A stretch of 37,562 bases of DNA from a virus (IMGVR_UViG_2534681673_000007:1-37562); one strand, 5' to 3'; positions 2,651 to 34,064 are shown, numbered from the stretch's first letter. The notes: generated by a model from the sequence alone, not told the origin. A program made the numbers and translations.

Positions 2651-3067
2651 TTATTCAGCGAAGCACGGTTCATCCGGCCACTCAATATCCGGTGCAATGC
2701 TGGTATCTGTTGCCGTCACAGCCTCGATATAATCCAGCACAACGTTAAGTCGGGTAGTTTCTTCTTGCGTCAGTTTGCGCCCGGCCTGCAGCTTTAACTG
2801 AATCACGCTGATATTGGCCATTGCTGCGTCTATCAGCGACTGTTTTTTCTGTTCAGCGTCAGCTACCAGTTCATCATGAGAACGTTCCGGAGGGAGCGGC
2901 GCAGTAAATACCCCGTCTGAATATGCCCAGCCGATTCCGGGCTGCTCACTGATATCAGAAATATTAATGAGCTGCAGATTATCCGGCACAGTGAATTCAT
3001 CCTCGCCATCCCAGACAATGACATTCACAACCATCCCATTTTCAATAACTGCATATGACGCATTCAT
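2651..3067 (-). CDS. Tail fibre assembly protein (chaperone)
   Basis: Start [16 protein letters not shown] at 3067, overlapping the upstream stop (TAATG). Position immediately downstream of the tail fibre gene. Sequence typical of Tfa-family proteins. Confidence 0.8.
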   Translation of the reverse strand: MNASYAVIENGMVVNVIVWDGEDEFTVPDNLQLINISDISEQPGIGWAYSDGVFTAPLPPERSHDELVADAEQKKQSLIDAAMANISVIQLKLQAGRKLTQEETTRLNVVLDYIEAVTATDTSIAPDIEWPDEPCFAE

Positions 3068-3993
3068 TATGCAAACTCCTCGATAATACAAACCCCAGCA
3101 GCACCTTTCCCGCCCGTCATACTGGTTCCGCTATAACCTGCATCGTATGCACCACCTCCGCCTGAACCAAATGCCCTGCCTCTAACGCCACCGCCAGCGC
3201 CTGCGCGTCCACCGCCTCCCCAGTACGATGCACCGCCTTCACCGCTGACGCCGATATTCCCGGACTGACCGTCGCCTCCATCTCCACCAGTGATGCGGAT
3301 ATCGCCAATATTCGGTACGCCTCCGTTACCGCCGTTTGTGTTTGTGACTCCTGATTTTCCGCCGCCTTCACCACCAGGGGCTATTACCGATCCGAACGAG
3401 CTATCACCGCCCTTGAGGCCGTTCGTCGCACCAACGCCGCCGGCCCCACCTGCGCCGATAGTGACAGGATAACTATTCTGTGTCGGGGTCAGTATGGTGA
3501 TTACTGTCCCTCCGGCCCCACCGCCAGCACCGAAAAACGTTTCGTTACTGGATATAGCCTGGCAGCCCCCCCCTCCGCCACCGCCGCCCGTTATTGTGAC
3601 CCTGATCCGTTTTGTTTCTAGTGATGGGGTATACGTACCTGATGACGCGAAAGCCCGGGTACTCAGCCGGCGTCCCACGTATCCGCTTGTATCTCCCAAA
3701 CCAAGGTTTTGAAGAGCCGTTTTCACCGTGCCGTCCGATTTGATATCGCCAAACGGATTTTTGCGACTTAACAGCAGCGCACGAAGCGCGGTAAGCAGCT
3801 GGTCATGCCGCCCCTTCTCCAGGCTGGCACCGGATGCCTCCACCACGCTGCAGAGCTCTTCCTGCAACATGTCAAAGTAGTCATCATCCAGATCGGTGGC
3901 AGGCGTGCCTGTCTGGGGGTTACCACGGGTAAAACCGTTCTTACCCGCGCCGAACTTATCCTTTTGCGCGGTTTTCGTGTCTATACGATGCAT
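3067..3993 (-). CDS. Tail fibre protein with glycine-rich repeat domain
   Basis: ORF 3067..3993. Long Gly-rich tracts ([25 protein letters not shown]). Sits between the Mu gp48-like gene and the Tfa gene. Confidence 0.75.
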
Positions 3994-32000: not shown

Positions 32001-32674
32001 ATGAAAACAATCCATGACATCCGGCGGTCTAACGCCAGAAAACTGAGAGATGGTGTTGGCGGGAATTCTTCCTTTGCCACTATGATTGATCGCGAGCCAA
32101 CCCAGACCAGCAGGTTTATGGGAGATGGTGCTACTAAAAATATCGGTGACAGCATGGCACGACACATCGAAAAATGTTTCGACCTGCCTGTCGGATGGCT
32201 CGATCAAGAACACCAGACAACGAACATCACAAAAAACCTGATGTTTCAATCACTAATAAACAAATCACATTAGTCCCTGTCATATCATGGGTACAGGCCG
32301 GAGCATGGAAAGAAGTTGGATATTCTGAGGTTGATTTGAGCACAGCAGAAACGTATCCCTGCCCTGTACCCTGTGGGGAAATGACTTATATCTTGCGGGT
32401 GATAGGTGATTCAATGATTGATGAGTACCGCCCGGGAGACATGATTTTTGTCGATCCTGAAGTACCTGCCTGCCACGGTGACGACGTTATTGCATTGATG
32501 CACGATACAGGTGAAACCACCTTCAAAAGGTTGATAGAAGATGGGACACAGCGTTATCTCAAAGCGTTAAACCCAAACTGGCCTGAGCCTTACATTAAGA
32601 TCAACGGTAATTGCTCTATAATTGGTACAGTGATTTTCTCAGGAAAACCAAGAAGATACAAAATCAAAGCCTAA
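32001..32674 (+). pseudogene. CI-like repressor (N-terminal HTH plus C-terminal LexA-like S24 peptidase domain) with reading frame split at an A6 run (32231-32236)
   Basis: HTH in frame of ORF 32001..32273. S24 domain (PVISWVQAGAW...GDSM...FKRL) in frame of ORF 32174..32674. One extra A would fuse them as ...NITKKPDVSITNKQITLVPVISW... Confidence 0.6.
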
Positions 32675-32686
32675 TCAATGTTTATG

Positions 32687-32710
32687 AACCTGCTTCGGCA
32701 GGTTTTTTAT
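32687..32710 (+). terminator. Rho-independent terminator after the repressor gene (AACCUGC-UUCG-GCAGGUU plus UUUUUUAU)
   Basis: 7-bp stem with UUCG tetraloop and U-tract, 13 nt after the repressor stop. Confidence 0.65.
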
Positions 32711-32712
32711 AC

Positions 32713-32740
32713 TTGACAATGTACCTTTGAGATACATAAT
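32713..32740 (+). promoter_or_regulatory. pL-like early promoter (TTGACA, 16-bp spacer, CATAAT) overlapped by operator-like site TGTACC-TTTGA-GATACA (32720-32736)
   Basis: Consensus -35 and near-consensus -10 read directly. Third copy of the TGTACC-N5-GGTACA motif sits in the spacer. Confidence 0.5.
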
Positions 32741-32850
32741 GTACCCAAGCGAAACAACGAACAGGCAGGACGCCCACGAAGTAGCCGCCTGGGGCATATG
32801 AAGTCCAGGATGATTCGTTAGCAACAAAAAAGCGCCCTACAGGACGCTTA

Positions 32851-32862
32851 GCTCTTTAACAA
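32851..32862 (+). promoter_or_regulatory. boxA-like element GCTCTTTAACAA in the early-left leader
   Basis: 11 to 12 of 12 match to the rrn/lambdoid boxA consensus as I recall it; about 50 nt upstream of the first early-left gene. Confidence 0.3.
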
Positions 32863-32907
32863 TCTGGTCCCCTTCAACAAGTAACTGATAACTTGAGGAG
32901 GTGTGAA

Positions 32908-33114
32908 ATGCACAAAACAGAACCCAAAATCGTCGCGCCTGGCTACACAGATGAGGAAATTTATGAGTGGATGACAAAGAAGCTGGCAGCTATAAACCAG
33001 CTTCGTGAATTGCGGTCTTATCGACAGGAAACAATAGGCTCCTTAAAAAAACTGGATCAGGAAATCACGGTTTTATCACAGGATGCTACTTTAGATATTG
33101 TGCAGACAAATTAG
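32908..33114 (+). CDS. Hypothetical small protein (68 aa), first gene of early-left operon
   Basis: ATG at 32908 with GAGGAGG 6 nt upstream. Predicted helical/coiled-coil (KKLAAINQLRELRSYRQETIGSLKKLDQEI). Confidence 0.5.
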   Translation: MHKTEPKIVAPGYTDEEIYEWMTKKLAAINQLRELRSYRQETIGSLKKLDQEITVLSQDATLDIVQTN

Positions 33115-33520
33115 GATCCCATTCATTTTCGTCAAAATCATCAAAGTGATGAATTTGTGATCTCCAGTCTCGATAATCTAAAAATTTCTGGGCGGTTACG
33201 CTTATTTTATCAAGTGTGAGTTCATCCTGAATTGAAAGAAGAAGTTCATCAAATTTCATCTCATTAATCTGTTTTGGCATCCAGTGATGCTTCATCAGAA
33301 TAAGGTGAACCAGAGCCTTTTTCCCATTCAACTGATTATAGGGAGTGCCGAATTTCTTCCGGTGCTCATGTAAGACAAGGTCTAGAAGAGTAAGTAATGT
33401 TGCCCTTGATTCCACTTTGCTTATTTCGACTGATGACACTACCCCACTGATTTCAATGCCCCGATACTTTCCAACATTTTCACAGTGGGATTTGTACAGC
33501 GTATAGATATTACCGGACAT
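33086..33520 (-). CDS. Unknown protein (144 aa) encoded antisense to the early-left operon; lower GC
   Basis: ATG at 33520 with AAGGA 7 nt upstream. 3' end converges on and overlaps the end of the 68-aa gene. No recognised motif. Confidence 0.55.
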   Translation of the reverse strand: MSGNIYTLYKSHCENVGKYRGIEISGVVSSVEISKVESRATLLTLLDLVLHEHRKKFGTPYNQLNGKKALVHLILMKHHWMPKQINEMKFDELLLSIQDELTLDKISVTAQKFLDYRDWRSQIHHFDDFDENEWDPNLSAQYLK

Positions 33521-34064
33521 TTCTTTTCCTTTTGCGTTGTTGGGGATAACCAGATTAACCGAATCCTTGTTGTTGGGGAATAACCAGGTCCACCTCGCCT
33601 GATGTGGCTAAAAGCAGGCACATAACAGCTAAGTATTTTCAACCAGAGAGAATCCTTAGCGTTGTGGTGAATGCGGCTCAGCGCACGCGGGTTAAGGTTG
33701 AGGCTGACAGTCGACCTTCTGTGGATACCCACCCGTCTGGTGTGCAACCTTCGCCAGGCACCGGGAGGCACCCGGCACCACAACTTTATGCTGTGTGTAG
33801 TCCTGGCGATACCAGTTTGTACCCTTGCTTCCGGCTGGTACCGTCCTTTTTACAAAACAGAGAAGAGCATCACCGGACGATGGGCTCATAACCCAATCCA
33901 TCCGGCAGTGACTACCGTAGGTGTTCTTCTCTGTTTTGTGGAGAAACTAACCGCCCCTGCGGGGGCATTTATGGAAACGTAATTGACTCAATAATCGCCG
34001 GATGGCGAGGGATTCTTGCAACCAAAATTCAACGCGGTGCAGCGCATATAACGTGGAGAACGAA

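Follow-up and report, generated by a model that had tools for sequence, protein, structure and literature searches.

A probable portable cassette of an antisense ECs1072-family gene and a YdfC-like gene downstream of pL/OL in an SfIV-like temperate phage

Why should the early-left unit of a temperate phage carry a gene that points against all of its neighbours? We addressed this question for a viral sequence of 37,562 nucleotides (the window, by which we mean the whole stretch analysed), in which a 144-codon minus-strand open reading frame converges on a small plus-strand gene. A sequence-only reading had described this ORF as having its own ribosome-binding site and a lower GC content than the surrounding DNA, with its 3' end overlapping a 68-aa gene, and had noted that independently transcribed genes so placed often serve exclusion or anti-defence in lysogens. 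The elements at the centre of the question are the following.

33086-33520, minus strand: 144-aa ECs1072-family gene, with ATG start and TAG stop (ORF listing)
33521-33535, minus strand: predicted cargo-specific 5' UTR with the Shine-Dalgarno sequence AAGGA at 33531-33527 (from sequence; similarity to phage PhiR29 stops at 33535/33536)
32908-33114, plus strand: 68-aa YdfC-like gene (phrog_1744) with a GGAGG Shine-Dalgarno sequence, first ORF after pL

The structural part of that description was borne out. The AAGGA sequence lies 6 nt before the ATG, and the last 29 nt of the 68-aa gene (33086-33114), listed mechanically as 73 aa from an upstream TTG, are shared with the 144-aa gene on which it converges. 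At 0.384, the GC content of the 144-aa ORF is below that of the immediate flanks (0.46-0.48) and of the whole window (0.504) and falls at the 8th percentile among 435-nt windows. The plus strand carries all credible neighbours, namely the gene of a cI-type S24 repressor, the 68-aa gene, genes for an HD-domain 5'-deoxynucleotidase and a DUF551 protein, and further an excisionase-like (xis) ORF and a lambda-type integrase gene (int).

An ORF that overlaps another ORF in low-GC DNA could be an annotation artefact lying opposite a real feature. However, its product matches the curated NCBIfam model NF033230 (ECs1072 family) over residues 4-144 with 157.8 bits (cut-off 70, E = 1.7e-46) and phrog_5286 over residues 1-144 (E = 1.5e-90), and identical copies of the protein carry the ECs1072 family name as their PGAP label. 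The family comprises 76 clusters at 50% identity with invariant or near-invariant columns, represented in the 144-aa protein by the conserved constellation R54/G66/H72/W134, and the AlphaFold2 model is very confident (pLDDT 94). Given these family matches, the conserved columns and the model, the ORF is a genuine accessory ('moron') gene; together with its own Shine-Dalgarno sequence and terminators they reduce the chance of a spurious ORF to practically nothing. Polymorphism in the gene amounts to 20 synonymous and 0 nonsynonymous changes, a count biased by the retention of loci for 100% protein identity; in the 68-aa partner, which was not selected on, we counted 13 nonsynonymous and 10 synonymous changes.

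The sequence-only reading had recognised no motif in the protein, and remote homology searches and structure prediction led likewise to its own family and to a model without a match among solved folds. A PDB profile search gave zero matches at E <= 10, and Pfam, PADLOC and NCBIfam searches returned nothing besides NF033230. No PADLOC-DB v2 family was matched at E <= 1 by the 144-aa protein, by its 68-aa neighbour or by either of two alternative cargos, and no DNA- or RNA-binding domain was detected in the 144-aa protein by domain and fold searches. With a pI of 6.4, a GRAVY of -0.47 and a maximum 19-residue Kyte-Doolittle hydropathy of 0.84, it is predicted to be a soluble, all-helical protein of novel fold without a transmembrane segment.

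The window represents a temperate phage of the SfIV/SfV type. Identity of the region is 97-98% with Shigella phage SfIV, whose copy of the 144-aa gene bears the annotation hypothetical protein gp36, and with Escherichia phages Kati, 569R4 and 689R6. In SfV, SfII and PhiR29 only the flanks match and the 144-aa gene is absent; the same slot holds plus-strand orf33 between two terminators in SfV and a different minus-strand gene in PhiR29. Pairwise BLAST delimits the variable block as 32868-33535 versus PhiR29 and 32820-33589 versus SfV. An inverted repeat around the cassette (75% over 20 nt) is improbable as a transposon or invertase site, being short and imperfect with no recombinase nearby. 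Compared with SfIV and SfV, the window is also missing ~1.3 kb bearing yfdP and yfdQ, with a junction at 33953-33964, a 12-nt stretch common to both sides. To place the slot relative to the early-left promoter, the following elements upstream of the 68-aa gene are needed.

32686-32705, plus strand: intrinsic terminator of the cI transcript (the same feature is annotated in SfV)
32713-32740, plus strand: pL-like promoter TTGACA-16-CATAAT, an 11/12 promoter match
32720-32736 and 32740-32756, plus strand: OL, two cI operators TGTACC-N6-RWACA found by motif scan and overlapping pL

The operator motif TGTACC-N6-RWACA occurs without mismatch at four sites in the 37.5-kb window, two at cI-cro and two at 32720-32756. 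When one mismatch is allowed there are 8 matches versus 1.7 expected, and 0/100 shuffles reach 8. Promoter and terminator calls in this work are consensus matches. Since the operators and the 11/12 promoter follow directly after the cI terminator, we place pL/OL, from these sequence signals, at 32713-32756, upstream of the cassette, with the 68-aa gene as the first pL ORF. Hence, the 144-aa gene lies antisense within the early-left (pL) unit, in agreement with the earlier description, and a slot analogous to lambda rexAB, between cI and pL, is ruled out. The cI gene of the window (32001-32674), compared with the intact 224-aa SfIV cI, is split into two ORFs by the loss of one A from an A7 run at ~32230; the cause would be a sequencing error in the homopolymer or else true inactivation of the repressor, the prophage being defective.

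The 68-aa protein is ~42% identical over 66 aa to YdfC-annotated proteins of PPompW, Evi, Tritos and other phages, and the 5' end of its gene shows ~80% DNA identity to K-12 ydfC over ~66 nt. It has no Pfam or NCBIfam match, and there is no curated YdfC profile against which to score it; on sequence similarity we assign it to the YdfC family as YdfC-like. YdfC is encoded by the promoter-proximal gene of the dicBF operon in prophage Qin, and its function is unknown (PMC5069750). The Qin arrangement (ydfA-ydfB-ydfC-dicF-dicB) resembles the window in that ydfC, as the 68-aa gene, is the promoter-proximal ORF of a repressor-controlled early-left operon, and in that the operon is followed by an sRNA, DicF in Qin and an STnc100-like block in the window. 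In PPompW, dicA is annotated as DicB regulator. Qin and PPompW differ from the window in having their YdfC-like genes without the antisense ECs1072-family gene.

We compared 14 mutually divergent ECs1072-family loci (22-68% protein identity). The big gene is opposed to its flanking genes in 14/14 loci; at one of them (L101) it shares this orientation with three further genes, the four forming an island antisense to both flanks. The loci fall into the following contexts.

6/14, just downstream of a cI-type HTH/S24 repressor gene, in the early-left direction: window, L087, L089, L093, L094, L102
4/14, between the Q antiterminator and the holin gene: Serratia L006, L091, ST64B L097, Klebsiella phage KPP5665-2 L098
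4/14, other or unresolved context: L088 (early-left-like block), L101 (island), L103 (beside a Cox-like gene), L095 (unresolved)

The L087 member adjoins a divergent gene for a phage-encoded CsrA homologue (L087 2-169, minus strand, Pfam 4e-24). A convergent YdfC-like gene overlaps the 3' end of the big gene by 29-113 nt in 8/14 loci. The remaining six loci have no recognisable YdfC-like partner; in two of them a different ORF converges on the big gene and overlaps it, and in four there is no such ORF. Divergence of the big protein is correlated with that of the small one (Mantel r = 0.78, P = 0.001), and both proteins split into the same pL-type and late-operon-type groups, so that on these sequence comparisons the two genes appear to be inherited as a unit. 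As the YdfC-like partner is conserved, a point that the sequence-only reading had missed, the unit is a two-gene cassette; in the window we read it as a portable one that extends over ~32868-33535 and lies directly downstream of the cI-repressed pL/OL of an SfIV-like phage. The GenBank records of ST64B and KPP5665-2 omit the ECs1072-family ORF and annotate only the opposite-strand genes, sb50 and GP45; the omitted ORFs, found by profile search (E ~1e-43), are as follows.

L097 (ST64B), 2845-3279: unannotated ECs1072-family ORF
L098 (KPP5665-2), 2845-3291: unannotated ECs1072-family ORF

The overlap itself has a peculiarity of sequence. Within the conserved EW[DN]P motif of the big protein, WDP is encoded by a palindrome, TGGGATCCCA (window 33113-33125), and in several loci (the overlap regions of L006, L097 and L098) the C-terminal tail of the partner reads (F)PWDP on the opposite strand of the palindrome. 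The small ORF of the window ends at a TAG just before TGGGATCCCA and lacks the C-terminal tail seen in other partners.

Candidate signals for leftward transcription of the 144-aa gene were found on both sides.

33536-33600, minus strand: portable leader/promoter region with two direct repeats CTGG(T/A)TAT(T)CCCCAACAAC 33 nt apart (sequence comparison)
L093 2902-2946, L003 3722-3786, L099 and L100 3001-3065: other copies of the leader
32979-33004, minus strand: weak terminator-like hairpin 82 nt after the stop of the 144-aa gene, antisense inside the small gene
32830-32849, minus strand: strong intrinsic terminator GCGTCCTGTAGGGCGC followed by T6, ~55-59 nt beyond the start of the small gene

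The 65-nt leader is CA/ARN-rich and contains two AAGGA motifs, features that hint at control by Hfq or CsrA. It is 91% identical in L093, where the family protein is only ~24% identical to that of the window, and 89-98% identical in PhiR29, an O157:H7 racR-type prophage and another E. coli prophage, in which it precedes an unrelated 171-aa antisense gene. A remote relationship of this 171-aa cargo to ECs1072 was ruled out (hhalign probability 0.2%); the 242-aa annotation of the PhiR29 gene starts too far upstream, and RefSeq gives 171 aa for the same gene. The leader is more conserved than the genes behind it, and the antisense cargo that it serves belongs to two or more unrelated families, in prophages with different backbones. 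In L093 both repeats have changed in concert, from CAAC to CAGT.

With z = +1.9, the RNA of the leader has less structure than its shuffled controls, which makes a riboswitch-like element unlikely. A Type III toxin-antitoxin-like repeat RNA was also rejected, there being only two partial repeats and no ToxN-like fold. Because similarity to related loci ends at 33535/33536, the sequence fits a leader that would be mostly promoter, with cargo-specific sequence starting near the transcription start. Neither a strict nor a relaxed scan found a sigma-70 consensus in the 300 nt upstream of the window gene; the best promoter candidate, TTCCCC-17-TAATCT at 33580-33552, is named by inference only. An extended -10 motif, TGnTAnnnT, is present 31-68 nt before the start codon in 10/14 family loci, the window being without it, against a background of ~5% per 70-nt stretch (binomial P ~4e-11, indicative only since the loci are related). 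Good own-strand terminators lie 35-110 nt after the big-gene stop, antisense in the partner, in L093, ST64B and KPP5665-2. The strong terminator at 32830-32849 is homologous in L093, and the flank is conserved with PhiR29 but not with SfV.

Strand-specific expression data are available for a homologue. For STMMW_20121, in Salmonella prophage ST64B, a dedicated promoter and independent transcription were reported (Owen et al. 2020, PMC7067206). It belongs to the same family (profile E = 5.6e-43), is likewise 144 aa long and antisense to lytic genes, has its 3' end overlapped by the YdfC-like gene sb50 (STMMW_20131), and has a terminator inside the partner. It differs in being 27-32% identical to the window protein, in occupying the Q-holin slot rather than that after pL/OL, and in having TGATATTGT upstream instead of the duplicated CA-rich leader. 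According to Table S5 of that study, STMMW_20121 is 435 nt long, starts 161 nt after the holin gene and overlaps the 360-nt STMMW_20131 by 71 nt, with a 624-nt gene 30 nt later (PMC7067206). This geometry reproduces that of the family ORF, sb51, sb50 and sb49 of the ST64B locus exactly, and the link of STMMW_20121 to the family is made through this exact gene geometry in near-identical ST64B sequence, not through the D23580 sequence itself.

STMMW_20121 is expressed at 61-269 TPM in 16/17 conditions and at 4.9 TPM in late stationary phase; the ST64B holin gene reaches 0.3-33 TPM, the Q-like gene 1.5-7 TPM and the YdfC-like partner 23-258 TPM (PMC7067206). In lysogens the big gene thus stands at repressor-like TPM, with next to no expression of the lytic genes on either side (PMC7067206). 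Under peroxide and nitric-oxide shock, both taken by the authors to induce ST64B, STMMW_20121 drops from 269 TPM (InSPI2) to 113 and 105 TPM, and STMMW_20131 goes from 108 to 148 and 258 TPM (PMC7067206). Since the small partner is expressed in ST64B lysogens, its confinement to lytic growth is not a general rule. In an uninduced O157 Sakai culture, ECs1072 itself changed -2.13-fold at the growth transition (PMC2241611). From the homologue, the 144-aa gene is very probably expressed in lysogeny. The earlier proposal of independent transcription in lysogens is thus supported by the ST64B data, the own-strand terminators and the extended -10 motif of 10/14 loci, but not by the promoter region of the window copy, which is without a sigma-70 consensus.

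Overall, we suggest, with a probability of roughly 60%, that the locus is a lysogeny-expressed antisense cassette opposed by pL transcription. In a lysogen, cI would shut pL, and the 144-aa gene would be read leftward from 33536-33600, with its own Shine-Dalgarno sequence directing translation. Its mRNA would end at the hairpins in or just beyond the small gene, giving a 3' UTR antisense to it. This first step we infer for the window phage; for the ST64B homologue it has been demonstrated. Upon induction or infection pL would fire, the YdfC-like protein would be made, and head-on transcription together with full-length antisense RNA would oppose the 144-aa gene, a second step with which the shifts in ST64B expression on induction are consistent. 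As a third step, the soluble, novel-fold, all-helical protein bearing R54/G66/H72/W134 would act, and for this we can offer a candidate role only.

An ordinary early or late lytic gene that is merely inverted and has no role in the lysogen would be in keeping with the many small early-region genes of temperate phages that act only in lytic growth, and with the missing promoter consensus of the window copy. We nevertheless regard it as very improbable: the ST64B homologue is at repressor-like levels in lysogens and falls when ST64B lytic genes rise, lytic transcription would oppose rather than serve a gene antisense to pL, and the gene is dispensable, as SfV, SfII and PhiR29 are without it.

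On its far side the cassette slot adjoins a non-coding block that bears on another explanation.

33631-33854, plus strand: STnc100/PasD-like sRNA block, divergent from the 144-aa gene (Rfam match; bioRxiv 10.64898/2026.05.13.724894)

The block is GC-rich and non-coding and matches the STnc100 model RF02076 over its full length, including the invariant core CACCGGGAGGCACCCGGCACCA, with 35.8 bits (E = 4e-6), below the threshold of 47. SfV, PhiR29 and L093 have it at the same side of the slot; in KPP5665-2 a 108-bit STnc100 occupies the same relative position, between Q and holin, and in PPompW an STnc100-like block follows DicF. The block may correspond to an sRNA of the PasD/STnc100 type that is processed out of the early-left or the late leader transcript. 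Just after it is a 25-nt inverted repeat (33852-33876 / 33915-33939, 84% complementary, 38 nt apart). A 114-aa ORF on the minus strand (33439-33783, gp35 in SfIV) crosses the leader and is antisense to the block; it is probably spurious. Complementarity between the 5' region of the sRNA and the leader is weak and not conserved, and their pairing is an idea only.

The cassette might then be a regulator or insulator of the prophage switch, whose constitutive counter-transcription after pL (or Q/pR') damps leaky read-through into lytic genes; alternatively or additionally, its protein could modulate antitermination or the neighbouring STnc100/PasD-like sRNA. A main lytic promoter often directly precedes the cassette, which follows the repressor gene in 6/14 loci and Q in 4/14; unrelated cargo shares its leader and orientation, and the ST64B holin gene is near-silent while the antisense gene is high. 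Among the family loci scanned, the cassette also adjoins an STnc100-like block in four: the window, KPP5665-2, L093 with a match that is partial and sub-threshold, and SfIV, where the block is called from its identity to that of the window. Such a block equally follows the slot in SfV and PhiR29, both without the family gene. Against this explanation, SfV fills the slot with plus-strand cargo flanked by terminators. Moreover, strong protein conservation and a well-folded domain favour a function in trans over a cis-only effect of transcription, and no DNA- or RNA-binding domain was detected. We consider this explanation unlikely.

A further possibility is that of an effector and its antidote: the 144-aa protein would inhibit growth or phage, the YdfC-like protein would bind and neutralise it, and convergent overlapping transcription would set their ratio. 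This reading partly coincides with the main one, but in it the partner would be essential. Conservation of the convergent, 3'-overlapping pair in two different genomic slots speaks for it, as do the co-expression of both genes in ST64B lysogens and the inversion of their ratio in inducing conditions. The correlated divergence of the two proteins points the same way, but simple linkage can also yield it. A recognisable partner is missing from 6/14 loci, YdfC-like genes also occur alone, the small ORF of the window is without the tail of other partners, and no toxin, antitoxin or PADLOC family was matched. The idea is doubtful on this balance. Two known toxin-antitoxin classes do not fit: Type II was ruled out as the genes are convergent, not co-directional, and match no toxin or antitoxin family or fold, and Type I as both partners are hydrophilic conserved proteins.

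Returning to the lysogeny-expressed antisense cassette opposed by pL transcription, we asked which known systems it resembles. The lysogen-expressed pL-region gene sieB of phages P22 and lambda reportedly harms superinfecting phages and is said to be neutralised in the phage's own growth by an antisense RNA and a protein antidote, as described by Ranade and Poteete in 1993. SieB is a membrane protein, whereas the 144-aa protein is predicted to be soluble (maximum hydropathy 0.84, no transmembrane segment). In architecture and logic, the sieB/esc/sas system would match the mechanism proposed for the cassette. The 144-aa gene lies antisense to pL; its expression in lysogens would follow from the ST64B homologue and its antisense control from geometry. 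The two are unrelated in sequence, the 144-aa protein having no Pfam, PHROG or NCBIfam match beyond its own family, and the Esc antidote is an internal product of sieB whereas the partner in the window is a separate convergent gene. The antisense RNA of the sieB system, sas, is mentioned in the ST64B study (PMC7067206).

A second parallel comes from prophage BTP1. Its BstA protein has reportedly proved to defend by abortive infection and to carry its own self-immunity, an outcome of the sort that would be expected if the cassette is a two-component defence. It had earlier been flagged as lysogeny-expressed, lying beside the repressor gene with similar TPM (PMC7067206). BstA differs from the 144-aa protein in being co-directional with cI, ~300 aa long and unrelated in sequence, and its self-immunity element is a DNA site instead of a partner protein. 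The TF-smORF modules, too, are two-gene small-protein modules in a variable slot by phage regulatory genes; they are divergent, with an HTH transcription factor and a smORF that inactivates cI and leads to lysis (Silpe et al. 2023, PMC10432266). An induction module of this type was ruled out for the cassette, as the pair is convergent and without HTH, and the small gene of ST64B is on without lytic expression.

What the protein does for the lysogen can be stated only tentatively. The likeliest role, still a guess, would be to benefit the lysogen against other phages, whether by excluding them or by abortive infection, and the partner would then modulate the protein or serve as its antidote. 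Exclusion or defence is thus a plausible role; the sequence-only reading had pointed to exclusion or anti-defence. More speculatively, the cassette could be a hitherto unrecognised two-component prophage system, in which a soluble effector of new fold, on in the lysogen, blocks other phages or controls co-resident prophages. The small-protein antidote and counter-transcription would then provide self-immunity, all within a portable cassette that has its own leader and terminator and takes the first position after pL or Q. The absence of a PADLOC match counts against a defence role, as does the finding that removal of ST64B from S. Typhimurium 4/74 left Felix O1 plating unchanged (PMC12724215), although Gifsy-1 resistance may have masked an ST64B effect on Felix O1.

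The family itself is not new: NCBIfam and PHROGs both name it, and a 2020 study had already singled out one member as a candidate accessory gene. In the literature searched, three features seem not to have been described: that the big gene is conserved in convergent pairs with a YdfC-like gene, that the cassette recurs in first position behind either the repressor/pL region or Q, and that its leader and terminator are shared with unrelated cargo. Of 5,426 complete E. coli genomes, 410 carry the cassette at >= 80% coverage, and it has relatives in Shigella, Salmonella ST64B, Klebsiella and Serratia prophages. It is thus common, and its Salmonella member is expressed at repressor-like levels in almost every condition, yet the protein has no known fold, domain or function. 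If it is a defence or prophage-competition module, a widespread system would be added to the catalogue. In that case it would also give the YdfC family its first role and explain the recurring antisense cargo after pL or Q, and the 65-nt leader would serve as a marker for finding further lysogeny-expressed cargo.
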